Shown piece after piece: positions 29,232-62,087 of a DNA stretch of 64,000 nt. Numbering within the stretch: position 1 is the first letter of the stretch; each line of letters starts with the position of its first letter. The notes under the pieces are model-generated. The model was not told where the DNA came from, searched no databases, and worked only from the letters and a program-made list of their open reading frames with translations. The position numbers and the translations under genes were made by a program. The DNA is from Eledone cirrhosa (Eukaryota), in assembly GCA_964016885.1 (NCBI GenBank), contig OZ024752.1:21452001-21516000 (forward strand). Direction: 5' to 3'.

Positions 29232-29276
29232 AGTCATAGTTCTTTCGTCACACACTCTGTGACCTCTTCAGTGACT
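29232..29276 (-). ncRNA. Type I hammerhead, family B
   Basis: Mirror of 32198-32242. Confidence 0.75.
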
Positions 29277-30716: not shown

Positions 30717-30759
30717 TATCAGGGTTAAGCTTAAGGGTTAAGACAGCTTAACCCTGATA

Positions 30760-31902: not shown

Positions 31903-32197
31903 GGACAAAATGAAAACACACACACACATAGAACAAACAACTTACAATTGAAAACACACAAAATGAAAACACACACAAGACAAAATGAAAACACACACAC
32001 ACATAGAACAAACAACCAACCAACAATAAATAAATAAATAAACAAACAAATATAAATAGAAAAATAGAAAAATGAACACAAACACACACAGACACCCGGA
32101 TGTGGCGCATGCGCAAACTGAGCACGCAACCCACACACAAACAAAATGGCGTAGGATAGAAGAAAGGAAAGGCACAGAAACGAAGAAAGAAATCCCC

Positions 32198-32242
32198 AGT
32201 CACTGAAGAGGTCACAGAGTGTGTGACGAAAGAACTATGACT
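32198..32242 (+). ncRNA. Type I hammerhead, family B
   Basis: AGTCA-CTGAAGA-G-GTCACA/TGTGAC-GAAA-GAAC-TA-TGACT. Confidence 0.78.
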
Positions 32243-33147: not shown

Positions 33148-33184
<37 letters not shown>

Positions 33185-33344
33185 GTCGTTTAAATAAACG
33201 GTTGTTTTTCAATTATTTACATATTCATTTACATATTCACGCATAAGTTTGAAAAATCCCTAATATATTTCCACTATCCAGTGAATTTCCAACCGATAAG
33301 GTATGATTTTCATGGGTATGTCTCTATTTATAAAACAAACTTTG

Positions 33345-33407
33345 TATTTTATCTGATGAAAGCGTACCAATGTGTCTTGGTACCTTTGAAATATATATAA
33401 TAAAATA
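33345..33407 (+). ncRNA. Type I hammerhead, family D
   Basis: 8-bp stem I TATTTTAT/ATAAAATA, CTGATGA and GAAA core, palindromic TATATA stem III. Confidence 0.8.
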
Positions 33408-33545
33408 AATATGGTTTTATTTTATAAATATAGTTTCCATTTATTTAATATCATTGAATATTTACTCCAGTAAACTGTTGATTGCTCTAAATCAGTTATA
33501 ACATTTATATTTGTCGGACTTCCAACAAATTAAATACCCCTTCTA

Positions 33546-33584
<39 letters not shown>

Positions 33585-33596: not shown

Positions 33597-34261
33597 GAGA
33601 ATGTCTGTCAGATCACTAAAACTCAAGAACCACCCAACCGATTGTTTTCAAACTTTACATACTTATGGTCCTGTGAGTGTTTTGGGAATTTTCAATGCCC
33701 TAGGGACCGCAGTAGGCGATTTAACGATCTCTCTCTATAATTCTTAGTCTATCTCTTTTTAGATAGATACATAGATATAACTGTTTCTACTTTAGGCACA
33801 AGGCCAGCAATTTACCAGTGCATTACTGGTACTTTATTTTATCGACCCCATAAGGATGAAAGGCAAAGTCAACCTCGGCAGGATTTGATAACGTTGCGCC
33901 ATTATATCTGTCTGTATGTCTGGATGTCTGCATTACGACATTATGACGTAGCTGTGTGTGTGTATATATGTATATATAGTGTGTAACGTCTTTCGAAATA
34001 ATTACTTCTGCGTTCACAGATTGACTTTTTTAGTTTCAGAAGATCCCGTTAAGGGTGAAAGCAGCGATTCTTTGCTTAAACTTTAATCTGTTATTTTAAT
34101 ATATATATATAATTATATATTCATGTACAGATATTTTTGCAAACACAATAACAAAATATAAACAAACGTATTTATTTCACGAGGCTCGATAAGGATAAAT
34201 ATATATCAAATATATGAGAACCCTAGAGCAAATCCCGAGCAACGGTGGGCCATTCTGCTAG
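33585..34261 (+). mobile_element. Non-autonomous Helitron-like element with nested Nin-like SINE (33780-33888, minus)
   Basis: 3' hairpin CCCGAGCAACGGTGGG followed by CTAG|T at 34258-34262. The 5' limit is approximate, within (TA)n. Confidence 0.6.
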
Positions 34262-34269: not shown

Positions 34270-34560
34270 TAAAATTAAATAAAAATGGCGTAGACATTAC
34301 AATACAATACAATAGGAGGAAACATAATAGTACCACTGATGATGTTGCAGATGTGCAACGAAAGAACTTTGTTAGACTATATATATATATTCATATCTGT
34401 ATTTCTAACTTTTGGTCAGTCAGTGATAAACATTGATTGCCAAATAAATTAACTCTGGAGATATGAAAGAAACAGAAGCGAAACCCAACCAAACAGTGAG
34501 TGTATTCTGTTATTATTTCTGGCAATATTATTACAACAATATGACCCTCCCCAAGTATAA
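34270..34560 (+). mobile_element. Solo 3'-end (pLTR) of a PLE family C relative with HHR-like motif at 34331-34374
   Basis: Homologous to 59235-59540. CTGATGA-T-GTTGCA/TGCAAC-GAAA-GAAC-TT. Ends at ATGACCCTCCCCAAGTATAA. Confidence 0.8.
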
Positions 34561-34637
34561 TTATATATACATATGTCCCAAGGCTCTGAAACCATCAACA
34601 CCAAAAACACAGAGCTGGCATATCTAAGAACTGATTA

Positions 34638-34693
34638 ACTGCCTGATGAGGTCATAGCCATTCAATGGCTATCATCGAAATATATATAGCAGT
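34638..34693 (+). ncRNA. Type I hammerhead, family E (within fragment 34570-34740)
   Basis: ACTGC-CTGATGA-G..ATAGCCA/TGGCTAT..C-GAAA-TATATA-TA-GCAGT. Confidence 0.85.
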
Positions 34694-35159
34694 AAATAAA
34701 GGATTATGAGTTCATGCAATTGACTTATGTTTCGTCACTATATATATATATATGTACATATTATCATCATCATCATCATCATCATCGTTTAACATCTATC
34801 TTCCACGCTAGCATGGGTGTGTATATATATGTTTCTACACTCACTCTCTCTCTACACCTTTCTGTTCCTCTCCCTTACTTTCTCTTAACCCTTTACCATT
34901 TACATTACTCTATATATACTATTGTATTTTGGTGGTAAAGGCTTTATCTTCATAATTATCTCACATATTGTTGAATCTATGAGATTTTGATATTATTCAT
35001 TTTGAGAAAAATACCTTAATGTCAGTATGAGTGGCTGTTTACAACCGGTTTGAATAGAAAGAAATGAGAAAATTCTGACCGGATACGGCCACTTTAAATG
35101 TAAAGGGTTAATATTCCTCTTAACTTTTCTTTCTTTCCCCAATTTCCATTTCAGTTAAT

Positions 35160-35530
35160 CTCCTTCTCACTCTCTCACTCTCTCAATCCTGTCCCTCTCA
35201 CTCTCTCACTCTCTCACTCTCTCAATCCTGTCCCTCTCACTCTCTCACTCTCTCAATCCTGCTTCTCTCACTCTCTCAATCCTGCTTCTCTCACTCTCTC
35301 AATTCTGTCCCTCTCACTCTCTCACTCTCTCACTCTCTCAATTCTGTCCCTCTCACTCTCTCACTCTCTCACTCTCTCACTCTCTCAATCCTGTCCCTCT
35401 CACTCTCTCACTCTCTCAATCCTGCTTCTCTCACTCTCTCAATCCTGCTTCTCTCACTCTCTCAATCCTGTCCCTCTCACTCTCTCACTCTCTCAACCCT
35501 GTCCCTCTCACTCTCTCACTCTCTCAATCC
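35160..35530. repeat. CT-rich minisatellite (CTCTCACT / CTCTCAATCCTGTCC units)
   Basis: Directly visible. Confidence 0.9.
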
Positions 35531-36615
35531 AGATCTTTCTTAATCGGGTGTAGGATTCCCTGGTTACGCGTTCCTTATTACAGATACCATTATAGGATAT
35601 GTTCTCATCTATCCCCAGGTATCTGTAGCAGTCCTCATCAGATATCGGTGAAACAGTTACGCCATTGATGACAATGTTGCTAGATTGGGTTGTAGTTTTT
35701 CCCCACTTTACAGTCATGTATGAGCATTTATCGTGGCCAAACTCCATTCCTATATACTTTGAGAACGTTGTAACCAGGTGAAGATTTTTCTTCATCCAAT
35801 CCATGTTCTTGGCATAGAGTTTCAGATCGTCCACAAAGAAATTATGGGTTAGGTTCGTATTTCTGTCCTCCTGTGAGCCAATGATGTATCCCTCACATTT
35901 CTTGAGCAGAAAGGACAAGGGGTTTAATGATAGGATAAATAATATCTCAGAGAGACTGTCTCCTTGAAATATACCCCTGCAATATTTTATTTTACCAGTG
36001 AAAATAGAGTCCTCCTTCTCTGTCTTTAACTTTAGGACAGAAGCCCAAGAAGAAGATAGCCTCTCTATGGCTCTGACAATAATGTCTGGGACTTTAGCAA
36101 GTCGGAGGGCCTCTATCATCCAAGAGTGGGGAACAGAATCGAAAGCTTTCCTGTAGTCCAGCCAGACTGTAGCCATATTCCTTCTAAGTTGTCGCACCTC
36201 CGACATCGCAGTTTTGTTGATTAGGAGTTGTTCAGCACATCCCCAAAACCCTTTCTTTCCAGCTGCTTGTTCATCTGTGATGATGTTATTATTTTCACAG
36301 TGATCTTGGAGGAATAGGTTCAGGCAGGCTGTATACATCTTATACATCAGGTTCTGGCATGCAATGGGTCGGTAGTTTTTTGCCAAGTCGGTGTCTTTGT
36401 TCTTGGGACCAGTAACGTTTGTGCTAATGTCAACCATTCTGGTATAAGTATATCTCCGTTAAGAACTTATTGGTAAAGGTCGGTAAGATACCTCCGATAG
36501 AATATCAGTTTTTTGTACCAGTAGCCGACAATCATGTCTCTTCCTCGCATTTTCTTATCTTGGAGTTTTCCTATCACAGTCTCAAGGGTACCCTCACTTA
36601 TTTCGTATGTTTTTG
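35530..36615 (-). pseudogene. RT of an RLE-type non-LTR element (R4/Dong-like)
   Basis: NYRPIAC, EQAAG, WLDYRKAFDSVPH, GIFQGDSLS, FVDDLKLY, YRYLG. Confidence 0.88.
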
Positions 36616-36639
36616 TTGTATGTATGTATGTATGTATGT

Positions 36640-37245
36640 CAGGTCACCAGTTGGTGCTACTGGTAACATGTATTCCAGTACAACCTGTCCCATGGTCGGG
36701 TCGTTGGCGACTAAACTGGCAACCCCACCAAGGTTTCTTGGTGAGGAGGGTGACTTTGGACATCCTGCAGGACTAAAACCAAAACCTGTCAAATGGCAAA
36801 GGAGCTCTTAAGAGTCAATGGCCATCCAAAATCACCGGGAGAGATGACCCCTTAGCCTTTGTCAAGGCAGAATTCTAGGAGAAGGAAAACTCTGATATAA
36901 CACTTGCAACCCTGATGGTATCCAATGATGTTGACTTGTTCTTCTTTTTGGTAAATATCATCTTGTTTAAGAGAGTGGGACTGGCTTTGTGCAGTGCCTT
37001 TGCTCACTATAAAAGCTTCACGGCACAGGCATTGCTTTATATCTGGAGATATCTCTGGACTTGTCATCACATGGTACCATGGGCCCAGCACTATGTGTCA
37101 ATAATTGTCACAAGTGTAGTGTTTGTACCAGAGTTTTCAAGTCTCTGGCTGGTCTAAAAAGTCACACTCGTTCAGAGCATCGGTAGGGGTTCTCCTACAT
37201 GGATATAAAGTAGTGGCCGTACTCGAAAACGAGTTGGCAGCTACC
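36640..37245 (+). mobile_element. ~606-bp non-coding interspersed element in (TATG)n, copy 1
   Basis: Near-identical to 39724-40329, with the same boundaries. Confidence 0.8.
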
Positions 37246-37489
37246 ATGTATGTATGTATGTATTTATGGATATACGTATGTATATGTTTTCTCTTTAAAA
37301 TTTTAGAGTATATTTTTGACTGGCCACCTTCCTGGTGGCAAGGTTGTAAAGACAAGGAAATTGTATGTATGTATAAGTGTGTGTGTATGTGTGTGTTTAC
37401 ATATTCAATACATGTGGAATAATTGAATATTTCAGCAGTGCTTGCAGGATTAGCTGCAATAAAAACTTCCACCGAAAAACCATCTCCAC

Positions 37490-38270
37490 TGCCACCACCA
37501 CCATCACCACTACCACCATCACATACACACCACCATCACTACCACCACCATCACCACCACCACCATCACATACACACCACCATCACCACATACACACCAC
37601 CACCACCACTGCCACCACCACCATCATCACATACACACCACCATCACCACCATCACTATTACATACACACCACCACCACCACCACCACCATCACATACAC
37701 ACCACCACCACCATCACCACGACCACATACACACCACACCACGACCACTACCACCACTATCACCACCACCACGACCACCACCACCATCACATACACATCA
37801 CCATCACCACCACTGCCACCACCACCACCATTACCACGACGGCCACCACCACCATCACATACCACCATCACCATTATTACCCCCACCACCACCATCACCA
37901 CCACTGCCACTGCCACCACCATCACATACACACCACCATCACCATAATCACCCCCACCACCACCATCACCACCACTGCCACCACTGCCACCATCACCACC
38001 ACTGCTACCACCACCACCATCATATACACACCACCACCATCATCACCACTGCCACCACCACCACCATCACATACACACCACCATCACCACCATCACCACC
38101 ACTGCCACCACCACCACCATCACATACACACCACCATCACCACCACTGCCACCACCACCACCATCACATACACACCACCACCACCACCACCATCACCACC
38201 ACTGCCACCACCACCACCATCATATACACACCACCATCACCACCACCACCATCACCACCTCCACCAACAA
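37490..38270. repeat. (CAC)n with interspersed CACATA units
   Basis: Directly visible. Confidence 0.9.
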
Positions 38271-38461
38271 AACAATAACACCAACATCACCCCTTACTAT
38301 GTTATATCAATAAAAGTGCAATAAAGTTTATGGCTATGACTATTGATTCCTAGGTTGATTGCTATCTTTGTGTGTGTAGCATGTGTGTGTATGTATGTGT
38401 GTAAGTATGTATGTATGTATGTTTGTATGTATGTGTGTATGTATGTGTGTATGTATGTATG

Positions 38462-39490
38462 TTATCTCTTTCTCTTAATTTCGAGTATATTTTTTTGACC
38501 GGCCACCTTCCTGGTGGCAAGGTTGTAAAAGAAAAGAAATTGTAATCCCTTGAATCGCAAGAATGTTTTGCAAATTTTGAAGGTGCCAGCTATCGCAGCC
38601 ATTTGTAGACCATGAATTAGGGAGCTGCGCTCTTTGTCTGCAAATCCAAGTTCAGTCATACTTTGGTCCAAGCGGGTTGGTATATAACCCGTAGCTCCAA
38701 TAATGATGGGTATGAAGATAAAGGTGTATCTTGGATACTGGATTTGTAAACTCCTCATCAATGGTCCGTAGATGTCCTCCTTCTCCTGTATTTTTCTGAC
38801 AACGTTTACATCAAGTGGGCAGCTGATCTCCACAACAGAACACGTTTTCAATGTGTGGTCCCAAACAACAATATCAGGCCGGTTGTGCTTTAATTTGGTG
38901 GCAGTTTTTATTTTCAGGTTCCACCAGTATTCCTTAGTGCCATCTGTCTCAATATATTCTTCCTCGTTTGTTGTTAATTTTTTTTCCGAAGTGCGTTCCA
39001 GATGGTTCTAGCTATCCCATCGTGTCTCATGGGGAGGTAGTAGCGAGATGACATTCTTTTGCAGCTGGCAACAATGTGGCTTACATCCTCGATCTTTGTT
39101 TTATAGCCTACATTTATTGTTAGCTGATGGCCCTCCCCTTTTGTGCAGCAGATATTTGGTAGAGAGTTCTTGTTCCTGTATTGCATAGAAATATCCCTCA
39201 AGGTGTGATCTCATAAATTTGTCGGAACTCCATGCCAGGCTTTTTGAGTGGTTTATCCCCTCTATGGTCTGTGTTTTACGTCTCAAGTATCCATGCACAA
39301 CTTTTTCTGTAAATTGGTCAATTTTTTTTCATCTTGTTTGAACATTGAATAGGATCTTCCGATTTCTCTGGGTGAGAGATTTATATCAGGCTTTATTCCA
39401 TATCTCTCTCCCAGATCAGTGGCTATTCTAATGATATATTTTTTTTCATGCTCATAAACCTGGGCAAGATGGTTGCCAACCTTTTTCCTG
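38462..39490 (-). pseudogene. C-terminus (zinc knuckle + RLE) and 3' UTR of an R4/Dong-like element
   Basis: AIQEQEL, CRL..HIVASC..RHD, RPDIVVWD, VVEISCP. The 3' hairpin GCCACC..GGTGGC recurs at ~37322. Confidence 0.85.
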
Positions 39491-43215: not shown

Positions 43216-43580
43216 AGTTTATGTTGGTTGTATACCAACACCTCAGTATGCAGGCTGGAGCACTCGACGAAGTGCGCAGGTTGGTTTGGTTACTCCGGAG
43301 TAGTGTAAAATAAAGTTAAATAAAAAGTTAAATGATTAAAATTTACCTTCGTTTATTACTGCTATATATATTTCAGTGACAGCCATCTTTGGCTGTGACC
43401 TCTTCAGGCAGTTTGAATTAGTATGGTATAGACAAGTACATATGTTGTTGAGGTGTATAATATTGTCAATACTCTGATATGCCCAGTTCTTGGTTGGGTT
43501 GTTATTTCACTGAGAACTGGGCATATCAGAGTATTGACAATATTATACACCTCAACAACATATGTACTTGTCTATACCAT
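43212..43580 (-). mobile_element. Miniature PLE-end-like insertion with HHR and 68-bp perfect inverted repeat
   Basis: Inverted arms at 43423-43490/43513-43580. (TA)n on the left, RTE sequence on the right. Confidence 0.7.
43358..43412 (-). ncRNA. Type I hammerhead, family F
   Basis: ACTGC-CTGAAGA-G..ACAGCCA/TGGCTGT..T-GAAA-TATATA-TA-GCAGT. Confidence 0.8.
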
Positions 43581-43584: not shown

Positions 43585-44555
43585 TTCCATCCAGTTCTGA
43601 CTCTAGCTACTGTACTTTCAGAGCACCCTCCCCCACTGCTGATTTTGTCACCCAGGTAACGGAAGCTGTCCACTATTTCTATAGAACCCTCTGCGCAGTT
43701 GAAGGAGCTAGTATTTGTGGGCACTTGCTGCTACTTATTGCACCAGAGCACCGGCCACATGTAAAATCTATGTTCTTAGTTAGCTTACCTGTGATCCCAC
43801 TACATCTTTTATGCACCCATACTTTGCATTTGGGACATAAAATGGAGTTTCTACCTACGCCTTTCCTACACACTGAGCATGGTCATTTCCCAGATGGGAT
43901 CGCCACTTTATTTTCTTTCCTACAAACTAGAACTTTAGTCTTAGCCAGGTTAAATTTAAGGCCTTTTGATTCTAGGCCGTGCTTCCATGTTTGGAATTTC
44001 TTCTCTAGTTCGGTCATTGATTCAGCTATGAGCGTTTGATCATCTGCGTATAGGAGTTCCCATGGGCAGCCGGTCTTGAACTCCTCTGTTATAGCCCGAA
44101 GGGCAATAATAAATAGTAGGGGGCTAAGAACAGAACCCTGATGGACACCAACTTTTACGCTAAACTCTTCACTATATTCGTTGTTAATTCTAACCTTACT
44201 GACTGTTTCTTTATACATGGCTTGTATAGCTCTCACAAGCCATTCGTCAACACCTAGTTTTCTAAGAGACCACCAGATAATGGAACGGGGGACTCTGTCG
44301 AAGGCTTTCTCCAAGTCGACGAAAGCTAAGTATAGGGGTTTACTTTTAGCTAGGTACTTCTCCTGTAGTTGTCGTACAATGAAAAGAGCGTCTGTGGTAC
44401 TTTTGCCTGACACAAACTCGAACTGCATTTCATCTAGATCAATTCTCTCTCTGATTAGTTGCGCTATTACTTTTTCTGTGACCTTCATGACCTGGTCGAT
44501 TAATTTAATGCCTCTATAGTTACTCCTATCTGGGGCATCTCCTTTTCCCTTATAT
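43585..44555 (-). mobile_element. RTE LINE RT fragment
   Basis: [37 protein letters not shown]. Confidence 0.93.
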
Positions 44556-44598
44556 GATGAAACATAAGTCAATTGCATGAACTCATAATCCTTTATTT

Positions 44599-44654
44599 AT
44601 TGCTATATATATTTCGATGATAGCCATTGAATGGCTATGACCTCATCAGGCAGT
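44599..44654 (-). ncRNA. Type I hammerhead, family E (within fragment ~44556-44890)
   Basis: Near-identical to 34638-34693, with one stem I mismatch. Confidence 0.8.
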
Positions 44655-45207
44655 TAGGCAGCTCTTAGATATGCCAGCTCTGTGTTTATAGTGTTGATGG
44701 TATCAGAGCCTTGGGACATATGAGCTTGTTAGGAATAATTTAATGTTGTCAGCAGGAATAGTCTTAATTCTCATTGGTCAGTTTGTAGATGGTAGTAGGG
44801 TTGGTATTTGACCTCAAAGAGACAGGTGGTGTTGTAAAGTTCAAACCGTCGGGCAAGATCACAATAGTTCCATATAACTGATTTTCACAAAAAGCATTCC
44901 TGGTCAGATATATATTCAATTAAGGTTAATAGTATGAAATAGATACTACAGGTCATTCTTAAATTGAGGAATTTATGTGGAGTGGTGCTACTGAAAATTA
45001 TGGTTAGAGTAGAAAATTTACAAATAAAAAGACTTATGTAGGTTGACTTGCGTGTACACTCACACCCACCTCCACAGACACACACACACACATCCACACA
45101 TACACATTGAGGAATTAATGTGGGGTGGTAATACTTAAAATAATGGTTAGAGTCAAATACTTAGATAGTTTAGAAAATTTAGAAATAAATATATATATAT
45201 ATATATA

Positions 45208-45316
45208 TTGTTATACTTTGGGAGGGTCATGTTGCCAATAAGAAACACACGCACCAGTAACAGTTTCAACACACGATTTCAGATAAAGAATCTTGCTAAA
45301 CAAATTCAGAAACGAA
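45208..45316. mobile_element. Minimal PLE family B footprint: inverted pLTR end + tail
   Basis: 45208-45258 matches 29076-29126. 45262-45313 is the reverse complement of ~29020-29070. (TA)n on both sides. Confidence 0.8.
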
Positions 45317-46992: not shown

Positions 46993-47036
<44 letters not shown>

Positions 47037-47039
47037 TTC

Positions 47040-47270
47040 GCTTTTGTATTTGTTTTGCAAGATTTCTTATCTGAAAATGTGTGTTGAAACAGATATTGTT
47101 ATATTTTAGGAGGGTCATGCTGCCAATAAAAAATACACCCACCTATTGGTTTTCACTTCAATGGATTACAAATTTCCAGTGGTGGTTTATTTATTGTCGA
47201 AGCTCTTTAATCACACATTCTGTGACTTCCTCGGTGACTAATTTGTTATTTTGTGAGGAGGTCACAGAAT
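47040..47270 (-). mobile_element. Diverged PLE family B-like pLTR with decayed HHR (47196-47240)
   Basis: Similar to 29020-29280. Core decayed to CCGAGGA..TAAA. Confidence 0.7.
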
Positions 47271-47518
47271 ATCAATCACTGAATCAGGTGGAGGACCTAT
47301 CACATGAAACATTACAATAACACTTGTTAAGGGTTTTGGTTTTAGGTAGAGGGATACTAGATGTAGAAAAACCCAGTTGCAAAGTAATGTAACACAGTGT
47401 GATGTACTGAGGCCTAAGCCATATGAAATTTGAGGCCCTTCTCTAAAAAAATATTATTATTATTTTTATATTAATCTTAATGATAAATAATAATAAAAAT
47501 GATAATTATATATATATA

Positions 47519-47615
47519 CTAGCAGAGGTACCCGGCGTTGCTCGGGTATTAAATAGCAGTTATATATACCATTTATGTCATAATTTTGAGACAGAGCGCC
47601 CGTGATGTTTGCTCT
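47519..47615 (-). mobile_element. Helitron 3' end
   Basis: Minus strand ACCCGAGCAACGCCGGGT hairpin, then CTAG|T. Similar to 34234-34261. Confidence 0.65.
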
Positions 47616-47787
47616 AATATATATATATAAAAGAAATAGGATTTCGTTTCAAGCATAGCTTTATACAATATGTATAAATATTTCGTATCTCCAAAGAAAT
47701 ACGGTTTTAGGAAGCCGTAGCTATGCAAACACCGGGGGGGGGGGGGGCTAATGCCCTCTGGTGATGTCTAGCAGAAGCAAGGGGGAC

Positions 47788-47833
47788 AACCGTCTATGCA
47801 TTTCAGGCTTAACTGGCCTTCGTCAGGACGGTC
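47788..47833 (-). ncRNA. Minimal type I hammerhead (retrozyme)
   Basis: Mirror of 48331-48376. Confidence 0.9.
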
Positions 47834-48330
47834 CCTCCCACCGCTTGCGACTGCTGGACAGAAGACAGGCGAGAATATATACTTTTCTCGTCTATGTAAA
47901 TGAGGTGATTAATCTCATTTGCATATGAAGCTGCATAAATTGGCTCAACTTATAATAGAAAAGAAATATTTTGTATCTCCAAAGAAATACGGTTTTAGGA
48001 AGCTGTAGCTATGCTAACACCAGTTAAGCCTGAAATGCATAGACGGTTGTCCCCCTTGCTTCTGCTGGACATCACCAGAGGGCGTTAGCCCCCCCCCCCT
48101 GGTGTTTGCATAGCTACGGCTTCCTAAAACCGTATTTCTTTAGAAATACGAAATATTTATACATATTGTATAAAGCTATGCTTGAAGCGAAATCCTATTT
48201 CTTTTCTATTATAAGTTGAGCCAACTTATGCAGCTTCATATGCAAATGAGATTAATCACCTCATTTACACAGACGAGAAAAGTATATATTCTCGCCTGTC
48301 TTCTGTCCAGCAGTCGCAAGCGGTGGGAGG

Positions 48331-48376
48331 GACCGTCCTGACGAAGGCCAGTTAAGCCTGAAATGCATAGACGGTT
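48331..48376 (+). ncRNA. Minimal type I hammerhead (retrozyme)
   Basis: GACCGTC-CTGACGA-AGGC-CAGTTAA-GCCT-GAAA-TGCA-TA|GACGGTT. Confidence 0.9.
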
Positions 48377-49635
48377 GTCCCCATTGCTTCTGCTGGACAT
48401 CACCAGAGGGCGTTAGCCCCCCCCCCCCCGGGTGTTTGCATAGCTACGGCTACCTAAAACCGTATTTCTTTGCAGATACGAAATATTTATACATATATAT
48501 ATATATATATCATCATCATCATCACCGTTTATATACGTATATGTATATATAATTTTGATGATTTAATGTTAAAGAATAAAAATTAATGATAAAATAAAAA
48601 TATATTTTTTTAAAATTAGGCTCCCTGGGTGTGTGGCCCTATGCTATAGCTTATTTTTAGCTTATAGGTAAGTCCAGCATAGGTGGTGTGTGGAAACAAT
48701 ATTTCTTAGATTCAATCAGTTCATGATGATTAACATGGAAATATAGAAGATGATTATTATGATGATGTTTACAGCAGCCAGTTTTGCAAATATTTCCTTC
48801 ACTTAAACAGTGGCAATGTCCTCTACATACAACAACAACCACGTAAACATTTTCAATTTGATATCACCATTAGCTATGAATATTGAGTTATGCCATAGAC
48901 ATGGCCACAAATTTGGAGGAAGAGGCTAGTTGATTAAATCAAACCCAGTATTTGATTGGTACTTTAGTTCATTCACACTGGAAGAATGTAAGACACAGCT
49001 GACCTTGGCAGATTTCAGTACAGAATGTGTGTAATATTCAGCAACAAAATAAAGCAAGACATTGTGTCCGATGTTCTAATGATTTTTAACCTCCATCTCC
49101 TTATCATTAACTGTAAATACTATTTTTTAAAAAACAAAAGAAAAAGGAAAAACTATTCCTAAACATTAACGATTTTGGCTGCTGAAGTTGACCTGTAGGA
49201 AAAGTATAGTCCAATATTTGAGTTTTAAGAGTTCTGATGGGGGTTGGCGAAAATGTACCATTGAATTGTTTGGCACTGTCTTGTATTGGCCTTTATCCAA
49301 AACATGAGAATTGTGTTTATATCATATACATGGATGATAAAATGGTGGAATAGTAGGATGGTAGAATGAAGGAATACCACACAATGTTCAGATTGGGTTG
49401 ATAGTAAGGTGGATGGGAGGATGGTAAGATGGTAAGGAATTTCTCTATATCGATTTATTAAAGTATGTTTCTGCCAAACTTCAAAATTATTTTCTGACTG
49501 ACAGGCATCATTATATATATATAATAATAATAATAATAAGAAAAAAACAATGAAATTTCTTATAAACACTCTGCTTGTGCATTGAGTGCTCATATTAGTA
49601 CCACTACCAGCAATTCATTGAATCACCCACACAAT

Positions 49636-50609: not shown

Positions 50610-51312
<703 letters not shown>

Positions 51313-51437
51313 TAGGAGGTGAGTTTTATTGTAGTATAATAAAGCAATGCAGATATCGGATAAGAAGCACTCTACAGTTTGTAGGACTGGAGTATACATA
51401 ATATAAGATCAAAAGATGGTTAAAGGAGTTCCATGTA

Positions 51438-51504
51438 TTTTATTATGCGCATTTCAAAAACAAACATCATCATGCAATAATATTTGTGTTTTCATCAGAT
51501 AAAA
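51438..51504 (-). ncRNA. Type I hammerhead, family G
   Basis: Mirror of 57406-57472. Confidence 0.8.
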
Positions 51505-52537
51505 CAGGAGAACATGATATGAAGGCTAAAAAACACTTGTGGATAGTGCAGTTTTAAATCAACATATGAAAAGTGGTTTTAGATTGATGTGTGATATTGG
51601 GAAAAATATTTTATATAGAGAGTGGGGTGGTGGAAAGGATGAAAAAGGGGAGGAGATGAGAGGGAGAGATGGGTGATAGAGAGAAAGAGATAGTTTTTAT
51701 AACTGAGAGAAGATATATTGTTTTACATAGAGAGGTTGAAAACCGTTGGAAGATAATGTATAAATTAAAAGAATTTGAAAATTAACGAAGGGAAAGATAT
51801 GTACGAGCAAAAAATATTTTATTTAGGGAGGGGGGTGGAAAGGATGAAAAAAGGGGGAGGAGATGAGAGTGAAGGTGGAGAGGGAGAGATGGGTGATAGA
51901 GAGAAAGAGATAGTTTTTATAACTGAGAAAAGATATATTGTTTTACATAGAGAGGTTGAGAACCGTTGGAAGATAATGTATAAATTAAAAGAATTTGAAA
52001 ATTAACGAAGGGAATTTATGTATGAAGATAGAGAGAAGAAATAATAATTGTGGATGAATATTCTAACGTCAAAAAAGTGTATGTTGATAAGTATTGTGGC
52101 AATTTCAAAATTAACGAAGAGAAAAAAGAATTATTAAGGTTTGTGTGTAGAAGGATTTGAGAAAAATAATGTGAAGTTAAAGTTTGTATATTGAAAGAAT
52201 TGATAATATGTGCGAAGAAAGAGTTAATATGTATTAAGAATGAGTTCGTTGATGGGGAGAAAAAAATAATAAATTAAGGATGAAATTGAGATTAAAAAGT
52301 TTTATGATAGAGAGAAAAAATAATAATAATTGCGGATGAATATTCTAACGTCAAAAAAACAAATGTATATGTTATGAAGGATTTTACAAGGTGAAGATAG
52401 AAAGAGGGTAATGAGTAAACAAGTATTATAGAGTGTATAATGCCCTTTGAGGTAAGGTAGGAAGATGGGTATATTTTAAAGAGGTGTATGTATATGTGCC
52501 TTTGAGAAAAGATTCTAAATTGATAAAGAATTGAATA

Positions 52538-54910
52538 TTAACTGTATACTTTGTGAAAAGTCCTATGGAATTTATGCAGGCAGATAGAAAACAAATCTGT
52601 ACGTCTATTTATTATAGAATCTAGATTAGAGATAATGGTAAATTTTTCATTTAGGCAGAGATTACAGATTTTAGATAGAGAGCTGTTCAAGTATGAGGAT
52701 GCAGAAGAAACCTTCTTCCAAAAGATGGTATATTTAATGTTTTTGTCTTTCAAGGACCATATGAGTTCTGAGAGAGCCGTGTTGGTTCTTTTAAGTTTGT
52801 ATTTGAAAGATGAATGGTGATTATAGAGACGAGCTTTAAAAGAGGTGGAAGTGGAGCCAAAATAGGTGAAGGAATTGGTGCTAGTTATAACTTTACATTC
52901 ATAAATTAAGTTTTTATCGAGACAATGGTTGTTGAGAGGACATTTATTTTTAATGCGGCAGTTGCAATTAGAGAGATTATTAATGAGTGACCTAGTGTTA
53001 TCTATAGAAGGAATTGGATTGGAGAAGTTGTTTGCGATAGGAATAATAGGAATAATAGTTTCTTGATTTAGAGTTGGATTATGAACATTTAGCGAAGTTG
53101 TGTTTGACGTTGTATTTGGGTTTACAGAAGTTAGCCTAGGGTTTACAATGACGTCGGGAGTACTATTACTGTTATTATGAAATTCAATGTTGGAAGGAAG
53201 AGATTTAGTATTTAGTATTTTATTGTTGTGTTTAGAGATAATGTTGGAAATATTGGAGGATGTAGAATAGGAAAATTTGATGGTGTGTTTGTTAAATATT
53301 TTACTATAGATATGTGAGGGAAGGAAGCATTTATTTAAGGCACTAAAAAATAATTTAGGAATATTGTTATTAATAGAGATGGAGAAAGGAGCATTATACC
53401 AGATTATGTTTTTGTATCTAGGTCTTTTATTAAAAGTATTGGAATGATCATGATTAATTATTCTACTGTAAGTTTTTCTAGAATTTGTTTCTTTACTATA
53501 TTTGATTTTATCTGGATAGCCGGCTTTAGAAAGTGCGTTATTATAGTAATTGGCGTTAGCATCAAAGATGTTTTTATTAGAAGATATGTTAGATATTCTT
53601 TTTCCAATATTACTAACTATAGCATTCTTGATATTGGTAGGATGGTTAGATTTAAAGTTAACATAATTTAGGTTCTCATTGTTAAGATTAAGAGATACAT
53701 CCAAGAAATTAGCTAGTTTGATACTATTATCAAATTCAATTTTTAGGTTATGTTGGTTAAAGAGATTACGTATATTGTTCTTAATAATATTAAGGTTAAC
53801 TATATTGCAATTTAGGATAGTAAAGAGTCCATCGTCACGATAAATTCCACCGCGAAGTTGAGGAATTTTCCGACTCAAAGAGTTCAAAATGAAGATACCA
53901 ATTAAATCAGTCAATTGGGATGAATCGGATGCTCCCATTGTGATGTCGAAGTTGTTAGAGGTATCGGCTCTGGTCCAATATTCGTTGTTGAACTCTAGGA
54001 TGGTTTTACGTGCGGTGAGGATGATGTGAAGTTCATCTGTGGTGATGTCAGAATATTTAAGTGCGAAAGATAGAGCATTATTGAGAAGTGAAGGCGAAAT
54101 GGAGGAATAGTAGCTGGCAATATCAAATTGAATAAATTTTAGTTTGTTTTTATTATCCAATTTGTTGAACCAGCCAATCACTTCAGAAGTACCAAACCAT
54201 AAATTTAGGTTCAAAGAAGAGCAATTAGAACTAACCTGTGGGATAATTCTATCCAAGATGGCTTTACTAACAACCCCCAGATCAGATTTAGAGGGGGCGA
54301 TTAATCTAACAGGTAGTTCAGTGCGAAAATTGTTTTTGTGATCCTTGAGATTTATCCTCGGAGTTCTTGGGAGGAATGGTTCGGTCTTTTTTTCAATGCC
54401 AAGTTTTGACATAATCTCAGAGGCTTCAAGGTTTATGTATTCTAAATTTTCATGGTTGGTTTTACGATACTTTTTCCTAAGTTCCTTTAGGATAAGGTTG
54501 TTATAATTATCCTTGGAAATACCATATAAGTTATTGGTTTTGTCAGAGTGGACTAAAACATTTTTTGAGGAATTTAGGTTAGAAATTGTGTTCTTGAGAT
54601 TTACAAGGTGCTCTTGTCCTTTGTAAGGGTATCTCTTGAATTTAAGATTTTTTATTATTTTAGTTAATTCTTCCTCGAATTGTACTAGATTTTTGTTGGA
54701 AGGAGGATTTCGTCTAGAATTAAATAGATGATCGAGGAAGTTATGTTCTTTGGTATGGAAGTTCCCTTTTAGGCGCTGGTCATAGAAATAGGCTGTCCAT
54801 CTAAGTCTTCTTACGAAGGAGTCAGTTTTTTCAATAAGAAGTTTGGTGAATTCAGATTTACCAGGTATAGGAATGTCTTTAGTTGAATTGGTTATGTTGT
54901 AATAATCCAT
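52538..54910 (-). CDS. PLE polyprotein, RT + C-terminal GIY-YIG (CxCx5C type, Hydra-clade-like); probable start MDYYNI
   Basis: STKDIPIP, SDKTNNLY, QFDIASYYSSI, FDITMGASD, IYRDD, CNCRIKNKCPLNNHC, LIY..YFG, CNLCLNEK..CLH. Confidence 0.92.
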   Translation of the reverse strand: MDYYNITNSTKDIPIPGKSEFTKLLIEKTDSFVRRLRWTAYFYDQRLKGNFHTKEHNFLDHLFNSRRNPPSNKNLVQFEEELTKIIKNLKFKRYPYKGQEHLVNLKNTISNLNSSKNVLVHSDKTNNLYGISKDNYNNLILKELRKKYRKTNHENLEYINLEASEIMSKLGIEKKTEPFLPRTPRINLKDHKNNFRTELPVRLIAPSKSDLGVVSKAILDRIIPQVSSNCSSLNLNLWFGTSEVIGWFNKLDNKNKLKFIQFDIASYYSSISPSLLNNALSFALKYSDITTDELHIILTARKTILEFNNEYWTRADTSNNFDITMGASDSSQLTDLIGIFILNSLSRKIPQLRGGIYRDDGLFTILNCNIVNLNIIKNNIRNLFNQHNLKIEFDNSIKLANFLDVSLNLNNENLNYVNFKSNHPTNIKNAIVSNIGKRISNISSNKNIFDANANYYNNALSKAGYPDKIKYSKETNSRKTYSRIINHDHSNTFNKRPRYKNIIWYNAPFSISINNNIPKLFFSALNKCFLPSHIYSKIFNKHTIKFSYSTSSNISNIISKHNNKILNTKSLPSNIEFHNNSNSTPDVIVNPRLTSVNPNTTSNTTSLNVHNPTLNQETIIPIIPIANNFSNPIPSIDNTRSLINNLSNCNCRIKNKCPLNNHCLDKNLIYECKVITSTNSFTYFGSTSTSFKARLYNHHSSFKYKLKRTNTALSELIWSLKDKNIKYTIFWKKVSSASSYLNSSLSKICNLCLNEKFTIISNLDSIINRRTDLFSICLHKFHRTFHKVYS

Positions 54911-55036
54911 GTTGTAGAAGAAGAGGTAAAAGACCATCAGAAGGTATCCAATATGAGAGTAAGCGCTCAACCGTTAAGGAGCAAGTTAATGTAGGAGGTG
55001 AGTTTTATTGTAGTACAATAAAGCAATGCAGATATC

Positions 55037-56138
55037 TACCAATATCAAGAATGCTATAGTTAGTAATATTGGAAAAAGAATATCTAACATATCTTCTAAT
55101 AAAAACATCTTTGATGCTAACGCCAATTACTATAATAACGCACTTTCTAAAGCCGGCTATCCAGATAAAATCAAATATAGTAAAGAAACAAATTCTAGAA
55201 AAACTTACAGTAGAATAATTAATCATGATCATTCCAATAATTTTAATAAAAGACCTAGATACAAAAACATAATCTGGTATAATGCTCCTTTCTCCATCTC
55301 TATTAATAACAATATTCCTAAATTATTTTTTAGTGCCTTAAATAAATGCTTCCCTCCCTCACATATCTATAGTAAAATATTTAACAAACACACCATCAAA
55401 TTTTCCTATTCTACATCCTCCAATATTTCCAACATCATCTCTAAACACAACAATAAAATACTAAATACTAAATCTCTTCCTTCCAACATTGAATTTCATA
55501 ATAACAGTAATAGTACTCCCGACGTCATTGTAAACCCTAGGCTAACTTCTGTAAACCCAAATACAACGTCAAACACAACTTCGCTAAATGTTCATAATCC
55601 AACTCTAAATCAAGAAACTATTATTCCTATTATTCCTATCGCAAACAACTTCTCCAATCCAATTCCTTCTATAGATAACACTAGGTCACTCATTAATAAT
55701 CTCTCTAATTGCAACTGCCGCATTAAAAATAAATGTCCTCTCAACAACCATTGTCTCGATAAAAACTTAATTTATGAATGTAAAGTTATAACTAGCACCA
55801 ATTCCTTCACCTATTTTGGCTCCACTTCCACCTCTTTTAAAGCTCGTCTCTATAATCACCATTCATCTTTCAAATACAAACTTAAAAGAACCAACACGGC
55901 TCTCTCAGAACTCATATGGTCCTTGAAAGACAAAAACATTAAATATACCATCTTTTGGAAGAAGGTTTCTTCTGCATCCTCATACTTGAACAGCTCTCTA
56001 TCTAAAATCTGTAATCTCTGCCTAAATGAAAAATTTACCATTATCTCTAATCTAGATTCTATAATAAATAGACGTACAGATTTGTTTTCTATCTGCCTGC
56101 ATAAATTCCATAGGACTTTTCACAAAGTATACAGTTAA
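55037..56138 (+). pseudogene. Inverted duplicate of the PLE-G thumb/endonuclease region
   Basis: Near-identical to the C-terminal ~365 aa of the 52538 ORF. Confidence 0.9.
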
Positions 56139-57405
56139 TATTCAATTCTTTATCAATTTAGAATCTTTTCTCAAAGGCACATATACATACACCTCTTTAA
56201 AATATACCCATCTTCCTACCTTACTTCAAAGGGCATTATACACTCTATAATACTTGTTTATTCATTACCCTCTTTCTATCTTCACCTTGTAAAATCCTTC
56301 ATAACATATACATTTGTTTTTTTGACGTTAGAATATTCATCCGCAATTATTATTATTTTTTCTCTCTATCATAAAACTTTTTAATCTCAATTTCATCCTT
56401 AATTTATTATTTTTTTCTCCCCATCAACGAACTCATTCTTAATACATATTAACTCTTTCTTCGCACATATTATCAATTCCTTCAATATACAAACTTTAAC
56501 TTCACATTATTTTTCTCAAATCCTTCTACACACAAACCGTAATAATTTTTTCTCTTCGTTAATTTTGAAATTGCCACAATACTTATCAACATACACCTTT
56601 TTGACGTTAGAATATTCATCCACAATTATTATTTTTTCTCTCTATCTTCATGCATAAACTCCCTCTCTTTCCTCGTAAATATTTTTTCCCTTCGTTAATT
56701 TTCAAATTCTTTTAATTTATACATTATCTTCCAACGGTTCTCAACCTCTCTATGTAAAACAATATATCTTTTCTCAGTTATAAAAACTATCTCTTTCTCT
56801 CTATCACCCATCTCTCCCTCTCCACCTTCACTCTCATCTCCTCCCCCTTTTTTCATCCCCCCCTCTCCCTAAATAAAATATTTTTTCCTCGTACATATCT
56901 TTCCCTTCGTTAATTTTCAAATTCTTTTAATTTATACATTATCTTCCAACGGTTCTCAACCTCTCTATGTAAAACAATATATCTTTTCTCAGTTATAAAA
57001 ACTATCTCTTTCTCTCTATCACCCATCTCTCCCTCTCCACCTTCACTCTCATCTCCTCCCCCTTTTTTCATCCCCCCCCCTCCCTAAATAAAATATTTTT
57101 TCCTCGTACATATCTTTCCCTTCGTTAATTTTCAAATTCTTTTAATTCATACATTATCTTCCAACGGTTTTCAACCTCTCTATGTAAAACAATATATCTT
57201 CTCTCAGTTATAAAAACTATCTCTTTCTCTCTATCACCCATCTCTCCCTCTCATCTCCTCCCCTTTTTCATCCTTTCCACCACCCCCCTCTCTAAATAAA
57301 ATATTTTTCCCAATATCACACATCAATCTAAAACCACTTTTCATATGTTGATTTAAAACTGCACTATCCACAAGTGTTTTTTAGCCTTCATATCATGTTC
57401 TCCTG

Positions 57406-57472
57406 TTTTATCTGATGAAAACACAAATATTATTGCATGATGATGTTTGTTTTTGAAATGCGCATAATAAAA
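57406..57472 (+). ncRNA. Type I hammerhead, family G
   Basis: TTTTAT-CTGATGA-[16-bp stem II with G.U pairs]-GAAA-TGCGCA-TA-ATAAAA. Confidence 0.8.
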
Positions 57473-57547
57473 TACATGGAACTCCTTTAACCATTTTTTG
57501 ATCTTATATTATATATATATATATATATGTATATGTATATATATATA

Positions 57548-59585
57548 TTGTTATATTTGGGGAGGGTCATATTTGCGTAATATTGCCAGAATTAATAACA
57601 GAACACACTCACTGTTTGGTTGGTTTTCGCTTCTCGCTGTCTTTTATATATATATATCTGCGATCTAACTTACTCGGTCCTCAATGTTGCCATTGACTGA
57701 CCGGCGGTCAAAAATAATACAGATACAATATAGACACAAACACATATATATAGTTTACATAATTTACATAAATCTTTCGTTGCACATCTGCAACATCGTC
57801 AGTGGTGTTATATTCATTGTTCCTCCTGTTGTGTTGTATGTCTACGCCATTTTTTTTGTTCAGTCTGTCTATATATTTATTTATTTATTTGCTTGTTTGT
57901 TTATCTTATTTTATTTTGTCTTCTTTGCGCATGCGTTTGCGTGTGTGTATAGTGTTATGTGTGATGTGTGACTAGTGTGTATAGTGTTGTGTCTGCTGGG
58001 TGACTAGTGTGTGTTTATGTGCTTGTGTATGTATTTATTTATCTTATTTTATTTAACACTATAGACGAGAGAGCCCAAATTCTCCACTCACACTATGCTA
58101 AACCCATGGCCTCCAAATACCTGATACTCAAAAACTCAGCAATGTCCAGTAGTGCTAAGTTTAATATTCTGATCGCAGATTTGGTACGAGTGATGAAGAA
58201 TGTGTCCAGCATGTGCGACCCAACAGAAATGGAAGGACACATCCAACACTTCATCAACCGCATGCAGTTCTCTGGGTACAACCAAAGAGACAGAGTCAGA
58301 GTATACGAAGGAGCCATGGAAAAGTATAAGACCCTCATAGAACTGGACATGAAAGGAATTTGCCCACTATACAGGAGCAAATCATGGAATAGCTTAGATA
58401 GGGCTAGACATAAGATAGGGAAGGCCACATCATGGTACGACAACCAGAGATATCAGGGTGTCATGTTTGTGGACGCCACCCCTGGAGGGAAATTAGCTAA
58501 CCAGTGTAGAAAGGCCCTGAGAAAGACCCACTTAAAAATAAAGGTGGTAGAAAAGCCAGGAACCACCATAAAATCCCTGATCAGCAAAACCTACCCTTTT
58601 AAGAAAACCCACTGTACCAATAGGAAATGTATCATATGTAAGGTGAATCCCCGGATAAACTGTAAAACTAGAAACGTAGTCTATAGCATAAGATGTACAG
58701 AGGGTACTTGCAGAAACATGACAACAACATACATAGGTGAGACAGCTCGTAGCATAGGTGAAAGGATAGACCAACACAGGGGGGAACTAAAAGGACGAAA
58801 AAACGGGTCAGTACTATACGAACATGCTAGACAACAACATGACGGTAACATAGACAACATAGAAATTAGAATAATATCTAAACATAGGAATGACCCAGCA
58901 GATAGGCAAATCAGAGAGGCCAGTGAAATAGAAATTAGAAGACCAAAGCTAAACAGAAAGAATGAGCGGAACAACAACAAACCCAAACAAACAACACTGA
59001 CCTAAGAGAAGTATAAATAAGTAAATAAAATTAAATAAAATAAGATAAATAAATACATACACAAGCACATAAACACACACTGGTCACCCAGCAGACACAA
59101 CACTATACACACTAGTCACACATCACACATAACACTATACACACACGCAAACGCATGCGGCAAAGAAGACAAAATAAAATAAGATAAACAAACAAGCAAA
59201 TAAATAAATAAATATATAGACAGACTGAACAAAAAAAATGGCGTAGACATACAACACAACAGGAGGAACAATGAATATAACACCACTGACGATGTTGCAG
59301 ATGTGCAACGAAAGATTTATGTAAATTATGTAAACTATATATATGTGTTTGTGTCTATATTGTATCTGTATTATTTTTGACCGCCGGTCAGTCAATGGCA
59401 ACATTGAGGACCGAGTAAGTTAGATCGCAGATATATATATATAAAAGACAGCGAGAAGCGAAAACCAACCAAACAGTGAGTGTGTTCTGTTATTAATTCT
59501 GGCAATATTACGCAAATATGACCCTCCCCAAATATAACAATATCTGTTTCGACACACGATTTCATATAAAAAACCTCGCAAAACT
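57548..59585 (+). mobile_element. PLE family C, 5'-truncated with inverted pLTR
   Basis: 57548-58054 is inverted relative to ~59032-59540. HHR-like cores at 57765-57806 (-) and 59282-59323 (+) have a weak stem I. (TA)n flanks. Confidence 0.92.
58055..59005 (+). CDS. Truncated PLE thumb + GIY-YIG endonuclease (relative of family B)
   Basis: HSHYAKPM, CTNRKCIIC, VVY..YIGETARSIGERI..H, IREASEI..PKLN. Confidence 0.9.
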   Translation, partial: NTIDERAQILHSHYAKPMASKYLILKNSAMSSSAKFNILIADLVRVMKNVSSMCDPTEMEGHIQHFINRMQFSGYNQRDRVRVYEGAMEKYKTLIELDMKGICPLYRSKSWNSLDRARHKIGKATSWYDNQRYQGVMFVDATPGGKLANQCRKALRKTHLKIKVVEKPGTTIKSLISKTYPFKKTHCTNRKCIICKVNPRINCKTRNVVYSIRCTEGTCRNMTTTYIGETARSIGERIDQHRGELKGRKNGSVLYEHARQQHDGNIDNIEIRIISKHRNDPADRQIREASEIEIRRPKLNRKNERNNNKPKQTTLT

Positions 59586-59870: not shown

Positions 59871-62087
59871 GACCTTTTTAATTTAATTAAACACCTCAAA
59901 TTTAAAAAGTATAAATCCGTCTTTCAAAAGGACCTTGATTCTACCCTATTGGACCTAAAAAAGTCTTAAAAAATCCATGTCCACTCGGACAAAACTGGTA
60001 ACTTGTATCATATGGATATTGAACATTATAATGAGTTCATATATAAAGAACTCAGAAAAAATTATAAAAAATCTAATAATGCGTCACTCACCAACATCAA
60101 CAACAAAACACACAACATAGTAAAAAAACTAAACATTGAAGATAGAACTGAACCTTTGGCATTGAAAAGACCACACTTCAACCTGAAGGATCATAAATCA
60201 AACTTTAACTCAAATCCTTCTATTAGACTTATATGTCCCTCCAAATCAGATATTGGAATAATTAGCAAAAAAATTTTGGATAGAGTCATCCCACAAATAA
60301 GAAAACACGTTATTTTACCACTCTGGGAAAACACCTCCCAGGTAATTAACTGGTTTAAAAATATTAGATGTAAATCTTCTGCTTCATTTCTACAATTTGA
60401 TATAGATAATTACTATTCTTCTATATCACCTATACTCCTGAACAAAGCATTGATATTTGCTAAAAATAGATCTAACTTAACTTTGGATGACATTAATATT
60501 ATTACACATGCTAGACTAACACTTATTGAATTTCAGAATGAATACTGGACCAGAAACACATATAGTAATCTATTTGATATTACTATGGGTTCAAGCGATT
60601 CCGCCCAAATTACTGATCTTGTGGGCCTCTTTCTCCTTTTCAACATAAATGCCTCCTTTCCCCACCTTAAAGGTGGTTTATATCGTGATGACTGTCTTCT
60701 TCTTTCTAACAACCTTAGCCTTTCAGAAATTGAAAAAAACAAAAAACATATTAGAACTTTCCTTAAAGACTATTATAATCTTCATATTACTTTTGAAAAA
60801 ACAAGTAAAGTAGTAAATTTCCTAGATATAACTTTAGATTTAGCTACGGGTATCTACCAACCTTACCATAAACCAAACCAAAACTTACATTACATACACT
60901 CACAATCTAATCACCCTAAATCTATCCTTAAAAACCTTGCGTATAATATATCACTTAGAATTTCTAACCTTTCTTCTAACCAAGATGTATTTGATAAAAA
61001 TGCGACCTTCTATAACGAAGCTCTAGATAGAAGTGGCCACAAAAATAGATTAGAATATATACCTTCTACTAAAAATACTAAAAGCATACAACCTAATATT
61101 ACCAACAAACACCAAATGAAAAGTACACACCTAAATGCCACCCACACTATACCCCAAAATACCAAATCTTCTAATATAAAATATAGTAACTCTCAAAAAA
61201 CTACTCATCATACAACTCTAATAAATATTAATAATAAAACTCCTAATAAAAAAGATAAAACACCTAAATCTACAAATATAACTAAAAATGGTTGTGGTGA
61301 GATCATTAACATTAATCCTCCTAGTAAACATCACGATACAACCTATAAAAATAATAAAAATAATAAACAACATAGAAACCGTAATAGACGGGTTACTTGG
61401 TATAATGCTCCATTTAATTTACAAATTAAGGATAATATTGCTAAAAAATTTTTTTATATCCTAGAGAAAAACTTCCCGCCAAACCACAAATACCATCAAA
61501 TCTTAAATAGGTCTACAGTTAAATTCTCATACTCAACAACAAATAACATAAAACAAAATATAAGTGCCTATAATGCATATAAATGTAAGAAAATCATAAG
61601 TATACCACCAGTACATCAAATTAACCATAATATCTCCTCAAATACAGAATTAACGAAAGGTTGTAACTGTAGAAACAAAGCAAACTGCCCATTAAAAGGG
61701 AATTGTCTTGTTAACAACATAGTCTATAAATGTAATGTTAAAACTAAAGATTCTATTTGCTCATATATAGGAGCTACCTCTAACAATTTTAAGACAAGGT
61801 TTAATACCCACAAGCATAGTTTTAAAAATGCCGCACTGGCTAATACAACATCTCTAGCAGAAAAAATCAATAGTTATAAAAATAAGAATATAGAATATGA
61901 TATGACCTGGAGTGTGCTCAAAAGAGCCACCCCTTATCAAAATAATAGAAATGAATGTAGATTATGTTCCCAAGAACTATTTGAAATAATGAAATCTAAG
62001 GATATCCTATTAAATAAACGACAGGAATTAATTATATCGTGTAATCATAAACTAAAAAAAACATTTAAATATTATAAACCTAATTAA
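59871..62087 (+). CDS. PLE RT + GIY-YIG (family A relative), 5'-truncated, one stop at ~59967; open 60003-62087
   Basis: [47 protein letters not shown]. An AT-rich 3' UTR follows. Confidence 0.92.

Follow-up and report, generated by a model that had tools for sequence, protein, structure and literature searches.

Insertion ends of a 328-nt hammerhead repeat point to PLE machinery as the likely mover of a retrozyme in trans

Animal retrozymes and PLE insertions

Metazoan non-LTR retrozymes, as described for mussel, coral and axolotl in the main-text parts of Cervera and de la Pena (2020; PMC7229834), are abundant non-coding head-to-tail repeats with a unit of about 330 nt, a type I hammerhead with a weak palindromic stem III, a GC content below 45% and a highly self-paired RNA, and a mollusc lineage that also carries PLEs is among their hosts. 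The repeat analysed here resembles them in all these respects, and differs in that its copy at 47629-48496 has one complete hammerhead per arm, and in that its circular RNA and self-cleavage are predicted. Those same parts of PMC7229834 gave no description of insertion ends, tails or inversions, and its supplement may bear on the ends. A PLE helper for animal retrozymes was proposed in 2020 (PMC7229834, PMC7761336), and the retrozymes themselves are described in the consulted sections of PMC7761336 as showing no motif that names their helper. Recently, Li, Clavereau and Pollet (2026; bioRxiv 10.64898/2026.07.22.740005) reached the same conclusion as we do, that PLE machinery mobilises retrozymes, on the grounds that in vertebrates PLEs and retrozymes co-occur and are homologous in their pLTRs, in a main text without tail or insertion-end analysis; compared with their retrozymes, the 328-nt unit has no pLTR homology to the PLEs around it but does have the insertion signature. 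The words "ribozyme" and "retrozyme" are absent from the examined text of the Octopus vulgaris repeat study (PMC13282606), and a literature search, with most subscription papers, Repbase and Dfam outside its scope, returned neither a retrozyme insertion geometry nor an octopus retrozyme. PLE mobilisation of retrozymes is thus already published, and the evidence for it from insertion geometry appears to be new.

PLE insertions have three hallmarks, a partial tandem, an adjoining inverted 5'-truncated copy and a tail of 30-40 bp (PMC8557442). For the anole PLE Poseidon PAc, the protein in purified form cleaves AT-rich DNA on both strands and extends each of them, and reverse transcription starts from two internal sites, the genomic tail being the interval between them, which the authors regard as unique to PLEs (PMC11167929). 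Mobilisation in trans through the pLTR has also been reported for PLEs (PMC3846280). The insert studied here shares with the EN+ PLE insertions of these three sources the partial tandem, the inverted 5'-truncated copy, the AT-rich target, a one-arm tail in the range of 30-40 nt and two 3' ends past the hammerhead, whereas it has no RT/GIY-YIG ORF and repeats a unit of 328 nt where theirs measures about 3 kb. It is also like the non-autonomous Chlamys PLEs, for example MRC1 (PMC8557442), which are non-coding, arranged head-to-tail and by inference PLE-mobilised; those elements, however, share 3' sequence with an autonomous family and mostly have no hammerhead, whereas the 328-nt unit has a hammerhead and no shared sequence was found for it.

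The insert and its 328-nt unit

Within the 64-kb stretch of DNA that was analysed (the window), two arms of a 328-nt non-coding unit meet head-to-head at 47629-48496, both pointing outwards, with (TA)n on either side (Table 1). The arms are 97% complementary across 301 nt (47668-47968 against 48196-48496). The right arm, 48020-48496 on the plus strand, holds 1.45 units, i.e., the 328-nt unit plus 149 nt, while the left arm runs on the minus strand from unit position 80 at 48023, through the hammerhead, to unit position 186 at 47629, and lacks 42 nt between two TATTT repeats in its first partial unit. The left arm reaches 39 nt beyond the right one, or 38-43 nt if a few bases are assigned to the TA target. 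These measurements bear out the inversion, the partial tandem, the (TA)n flanks and the left-arm excess (47629-47667) described in an earlier note on this DNA. No second copy of the unit was found elsewhere in the window.

Table 1. Features of the insert at 47629-48496 and inverted PLEs of the window
Feature	Position	Strand	Evidence or remarks
(TA)n tract, left target remnant	47617-47629	.	TA runs
39-nt tail, left arm out to distal 3' end (unit 48167-48205)	47629-47667	-	Arm comparison; end recurs in other copies
Left arm (395 nt), unit positions 80-328 followed by 1-186, 42-nt deletion	47629-48023	-	
Left-arm type I hammerhead motif, complete; cut predicted between 47795 and 47794	47790-47831	-	Motif and stems
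Head-to-head junction, CCAG common to both arms	48020-48023	.	
Full 328-nt unit, begins in loop 2 of 5'-truncated hammerhead	48020-48347	+	Non-coding, GC 44%, strongly self-paired
Right-arm type I hammerhead motif, complete; cut predicted between 48369 and 48370	48333-48374	+	Motif and stems
Partial second unit, right arm, to proximal 3' end (unit 48166, loop of 10-bp hairpin)	48348-48496	+	Same end in 22 X1 contigs among the listed ends
(TA)n tract, right target remnant	48493-48510	.	TA runs
RTE-type (GAT)n tail stub, adjoining right (TA)n tract	48509-48530	-	
Inverted coding PLE	29020-32399		Tail 55 nt; 12-bp duplication 29008-29019 / 32399-32410, no TA flanks
Inverted coding PLE, Hydra-like	51312-57517		Tail 81 nt; (TA)n flanks
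Inverted coding PLE, Neptune-like	57545-59584		Tail 41 nt; (TA)n flanks
Inverted PLE remnant, Hydra-like	27575-33548		Tail 84 nt

The putative hammerhead at 48333-48374 combines a stem I of CCGUC/GACGG, the core CUGACGA, a 4-bp stem II, GAAA and a palindromic AUGCAU stem III. A stem II of 4 bp together with a stem III that is palindromic marks the canonical animal form, which is thought to cut as a dimer, according to the portions of PMC4209133 consulted. In the Rfam search no hammerhead match appeared at either threshold, with nothing at gathering level in the whole window and, at the lower threshold, six chance-level matches in 47600-48520, none of them a hammerhead; the predicted hammerhead is assigned from its motif and stems, not from Rfam. 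The longest stop-free frame of the unit is 68 aa, and neither the unit nor the insert holds the RT and GIY-YIG ORF of an autonomous PLE. With a GC content of 44.2%, the unit is 64% paired when folded as a circle, far better than its shuffles (z -7.07, 0 of 100 as good).

These are the features of a non-LTR retrozyme, namely a type I hammerhead with stems I-III, a non-coding head-to-tail unit within 170-400 nt, a GC content below 45% and an RNA that is highly self-paired in its predicted fold. The arrangement by which Li et al. (2026) define an "active" retrozyme, in which one unit directly follows another and both have a complete hammerhead, was not found at 47629-48496, where each arm has one complete motif. 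We regard the insert as one copy of an abundant 328-nt non-coding hammerhead repeat of the retrozyme type, with self-cleavage and circular RNA as predictions. Where three or four units overlap, 12 differences were counted in 523 compared bases, each private to one unit, which fits one template copied and then aged by about 2%, and fits a homogeneous array equally well. An exact 24-nt pattern of the unit had 0 matches in metagenome and viral contigs.

The CCAG shared by the arms at 48020-48023, which the earlier note had pointed out, does fit both of them, and an overlap of 4 nt is expected in 0.8-1.6% of random junctions. The overlap requires a template T at 48100, a position at which two of three other units have C or G, and at which C is the majority by contig depth in sequencing run X1 (19073/20547) and the minority in raw reads (53/160 in run X8, 46/125 in run X9). 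With a template C the overlap shrinks to an unremarkable CC (9-16%), and because it hinges on this variable base, it may be just CC.

Copy ends in sequencing runs and the rival explanations

Sequencing runs were aligned to one unit (48041-48368). Four of ten were used, X1, X8 and X9 from organism A and X5 from organism B, with 4182 aligned contigs in X1, 1473 and 1115 reads in the RAD runs X8 and X9, respectively, and 2 contigs in X5; X4, X6 and X7 had small shares and were set aside. The X1 contigs are fragments, their counts are not loci, and summed contig depth was not used as copy number. X1 has 0.62 of the words of 47400-48800, matching the insert's share of that stretch. The evidence consists of the best 18 of 372 rows for loose ends and the best 15 of 22 rows for joints, hereafter the listed ends and joints. 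A head-to-tail joint leading back by 328 nt was present in all four runs, in 18 contigs of X1, 1 contig of X5, 75 reads of X8 (9 starts; 227 reads over the ends) and 61 reads of X9 (9 starts; 144 reads over the ends).

Among the listed ends, X1 copies stop and are followed by (AT)n at 48166 (22 contigs), 48203 (3) and 48209 (32), 57 contigs in total, and the agreement of the flanks behind them is 0.60, 0.98 and 0.59, respectively, low agreement meaning that the flanks are many and varied. At 48206 a C>A mismatch, carried by 228 of 287 plus-strand X8 reads, lets the 48205 end run on to 48209, and the 48203 and 48209 rows both represent a distal end near 48205. In the listed rows, copy ends pile up at two unit sites, 48166 and about 48205, 39 nt apart and each followed by (TA)n. 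The distal end is also present in the listed RAD rows, with 95 and 258 reads in X8 and 119 and 227 reads in X9; those RAD rows whose agreement is 0.98 probably stand for one locus each, and the reads as a whole probably for few loci. Three of the four X1 rows listed as lying behind the unit begin with (AT)n and the fourth is at 48303 (24 contigs); by comparison with the unit, the X1 rows without TA (48303 behind; 48166 and 48305 before) appear to be a divergent subfamily of it. One further listed end, at 48154 in X9 (58 reads, agreement 0.41), falls outside both end sites.

Opposite-strand joints among those listed number three in X1, one contig each and with the orientation given for one of them, and X5 has one head-to-head contig. 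In four of five inversion joints (the window locus, where the junction is at unit 48099, two of the three in X1 and the one in X5; orientation given for three of the four) one arm ends within unit 48095-48107, 3' of a poly-C run and a GC-rich hairpin, which is possibly a stall site for the reverse transcriptase. The X1 joint 48041-48107 has a single contig arm ending at 48041, one base off the predicted cut and also at the edge of the aligned stretch, and is only a lead for run-off from cut RNA. The 42-nt deletion of the left arm (at 47964-47968) takes out the proximal end along with the greater part of the tail, and a similar skip of 44 nt (48152-48197) is found in one X1 contig of the listed joints.

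The insert at 47629-48496 combines a partial tandem, an inverted 5'-truncated copy, a 39-nt one-arm tail, two fixed 3' ends and a (TA)n target. Because the two fixed ends 39 nt apart recur over copies, which is the published PLE signature, we consider it highly probable that PLE machinery wrote the insertion; this is a stronger argument than the one from which the earlier note had attributed it to PLE RT/GIY-YIG machinery. Since the insert shows all three PLE hallmarks and encodes nothing, a PLE protein acting in trans is its most likely agent, and we give a probability of roughly 0.75 to the reading that the 328-nt retrozyme was put into (TA)n by the RT/GIY-YIG protein of a PLE in trans. What discriminates between the possible agents is that the ends are fixed at two sites, and not the flanks or the inversion. 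Of the RTE-type 3' ends, 8 of the 10 strict ones are followed by TA (11 of 18 when all (GAT)n runs are counted), as are 2 of 2 Helitron-like ends, against a background of 6.5% of random positions. As RTE tails and Helitron ends carry them too, (TA)n flanks are not diagnostic in this window, and we discarded them as evidence for a PLE, a role that they had been given earlier. The two Helitron-like 3' ends (hairpin and CTAG), both with (TA)n after them, are at 47519-47548 (minus) and 34232-34261 (plus).

The insert might instead be the 5'-truncated end of a coding PLE that does not occur in the window and has a 328-nt hammerhead tandem in its terminal region, moved in cis, with no separate retrozyme involved. 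Its geometry is the same as that of the coding PLEs, one of which (51312-57517) has a 215-nt tandem of 2.7 copies in its 3' region, and since the rows in evidence are the best 18 of 372 for loose ends and the best 15 of 22 for joints, copies may on rare occasions run on into a coding parent; that tandem, however, lies upstream of the hammerhead and does not include it, and no LINE tail or branch into coding sequence was found among those rows. In addition, the unit closes on itself in three organism A samples and in organism B, the listed X1 loose ends without TA look like diverged versions of the unit, and the canonical 4-bp stem II contrasts with a longer, bulged one in the neighbouring Neptune-like PLEs. 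Beyond the tail the sequence returns to the hammerhead without an ORF, whereas the tail of the coding PLE described in the available text of PMC11167929 is located at the ORF start. We consider such a truncated coding parent unlikely.

A LINE, either an RTE or a Dong/R4-like element with remains at 35508-39007, could also have copied the RNA and inverted it by twin or dual priming. These remains comprise a broken RT at 35508-36458 on the minus strand (RVT_1, E 1.9e-23) and a C-terminal piece at 38462-39007 on the same strand, which we take to resemble the restriction-like endonuclease of a Dong/R4-type LINE. RVT_1 ORFs are present at 35511-36458 and 43886-44596, the RTE tails in the window also adjoin (TA)n, RTE and Dong-R4 elements have been recently active in Octopus vulgaris (PMC13282606, in part), and L1 twin and dual priming do yield inverted structures with overlap at the junction (PMC2837659, in part). 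Twin priming, though, is described in that source as leaving non-overlapping arms and an internal deletion, whereas the arms of the insert overlap, with a hammerhead in each; the unit ends carry no poly(A) or (GAT)n tail of their own, and the insert has neither the shared 3' tail of a LINE-mobilised SINE nor non-overlapping inverted arms. Each end lies inside a circularly permuted unit and recurs over copies among the listed ends, and a LINE as the agent is accordingly very improbable.

Equally remote is a repeat spread as Helitron cargo or as a satellite and folded back at the DNA level, with no reverse transcription. One Helitron-like 3' end lies 70-110 nt left of the insert, and among the listed ends such an end abuts unit 48164 in X8 (107 reads) and X9 (106 reads). 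The 48164 case falls at a step from A to T, presumably the usual Helitron target, and so we read it as a Helitron that adjoins a copy or lies within it. Among the listed copies the flanks past the TA vary, with an agreement near 0.6 in X1 and with flanks that differ from one another in the RAD runs, so that the best-supported rows show heterogeneous flanks and no constant enclosing Helitron sequence. Local tandem amplification is allowed by the main text of bioRxiv 10.64898/2026.07.22.740005, but fold-back at the DNA level leaves the two fixed ends unexplained. What the earlier note had named as speaking against a PLE, namely LINE-type tails, random ends or a constant Helitron setting, did not turn up among the listed ends.

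Neighbouring PLEs, a tentative mechanism and its meaning

Four PLE ORFs of the window show RT YxDD, linker and GIY-YIG-type motifs, not every motif in each. The two that were queried resemble HTH_animal/GIY-YIG/RVT_1 clusters, and an Octopus vulgaris protein with 65% identity was the only one of the 27 matches to one ORF that named an organism, which makes an octopus the probable host; neither Pfam nor a PDB sequence search identified the four. According to the motifs in the consulted part of PMC8557442, ORFs 52538-54973 and 59970-62087 appear to be Hydra-like (CxCX5C, DKT), and ORFs 30742-31902 and 58004-59005 Neptune/Nematis-like (CX4CxxC). The frame 52538-54973, of 811 codons, looks complete. 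That the insert is built like the coding PLEs here holds for 51312-57517 and 57545-59584, and fails for 29020-32399, which sits within other sequence with a 12-bp duplication. In these nested PLEs (27575-33548), the very young Neptune-like copy (arms 1/1655) with that duplication lies within an older Hydra-like inverted copy.

All four inverted PLEs have the hammerhead, the short end and the long end in the same sense order as the 328-nt unit, whose ends lie about 125 and 164 nt downstream of the predicted cut. Their tails are family-specific (41, 55, 81 and 84 nt, against 39 nt in the retrozyme insert). In local alignments of the unit with the six PLE ends of the window, no positionally homologous pLTR or tail sequence was found, the best scores being AT-rich, non-positional and equalled by 1-192 of 200 shuffles. 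The clues to a partner family conflict: the tail length is nearest to that of the Neptune-like 57545-59584, whose short-end 22-mer also aligned best at the short end of the unit, while that of the sister family did not, whereas what the unit hammerhead has in common with the Hydra-like family is a stem II with A-U as its basal pair and a stem III that is palindromic.

Arm divergence is 8/301 in the retrozyme insert, 1/1655, 1/512 and 7/1538 in the coding PLEs and 17/498 in the remnant. By this measure the retrozyme copy is older than its intact PLE neighbours, unless its arms derive from different variants, and an age match with them was rejected. Together with the lack of a positional match to the six PLE ends, these values do not uphold the autonomous/non-autonomous pair that had been proposed for this locus. 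The second part of that proposal, a shared ribozyme-based insertion mechanism, is not supported either: in the accessible text of PMC11167929, in vitro insertion by the anole element, the one PLE assayed, was unaffected by hammerhead mutants.

Several other PLE-derived structures were observed. A 108-nt head-to-head insertion in (TA)n at 45209-45316 belongs to the PLE family at 29-32 kb, and its arms consist of the short end and of almost only tail. At 54989-55036, the inversion junction of the Hydra-like PLE repeats 48 nt of that element's tail (51310-51357), which is a template jump at the join. A CCAG overlap as a common PLE trait was rejected, since the junctions of the PLEs here have either a brief fold-back or a copy of the tail that was captured, or offer nothing to score. 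Hammerhead-bearing or degenerate fragments of PLE ends occur at 34570-34742, 44551-44722, 43330-43580, 47031-47260 and 34278-34570, most of them adjoining (TA)n, and the hammerhead core pattern was seen 13 times in the window against 1.84 expected.

For an insertion by a PLE protein in trans, the following course may be proposed. The protein would nick both strands of an AT-rich target, and each 3' end would prime reverse transcription within the RNA, one at the proximal start (48166) and the other at the distal start (48205), the difference between the starts leaving a tail on a single arm. The cDNAs would read through the predicted hammerhead cut site, twice in the right arm and once in the left, and the two cDNA ends would be joined through a 2-4-nt overlap. 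Because both arms cross the predicted cut site, the template would have been a circle or an uncut multimer, both of which fit the data, rather than a cut linear monomer. The role of the ribozyme would then lie in making monomers or circles, not in insertion. Tentatively, and with somewhat less than even confidence, we suggest that the PLE reverse transcriptase rolls round a ribozyme-made 328-nt circular RNA from two internal sites that are kept as a structural signal, with no visible sequence likeness to the helper.

The 2020 work did not settle which retrotransposon mobilises the retrozymes of animals, and the case made in 2026 drew solely on co-occurrence and homology. A tail left by two starts is a mark at the level of mechanism, which can be scored from genomes alone in any retrozyme family, and the two mapped starts together with the 328-nt size make the helper question directly testable in vitro, including the circle as template. 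If the rolling-circle reading were true, the family would count as a minimal natural cargo of a PLE, and it would be the first case in which the helper class of a retrozyme is read directly off the ends of its insertions.
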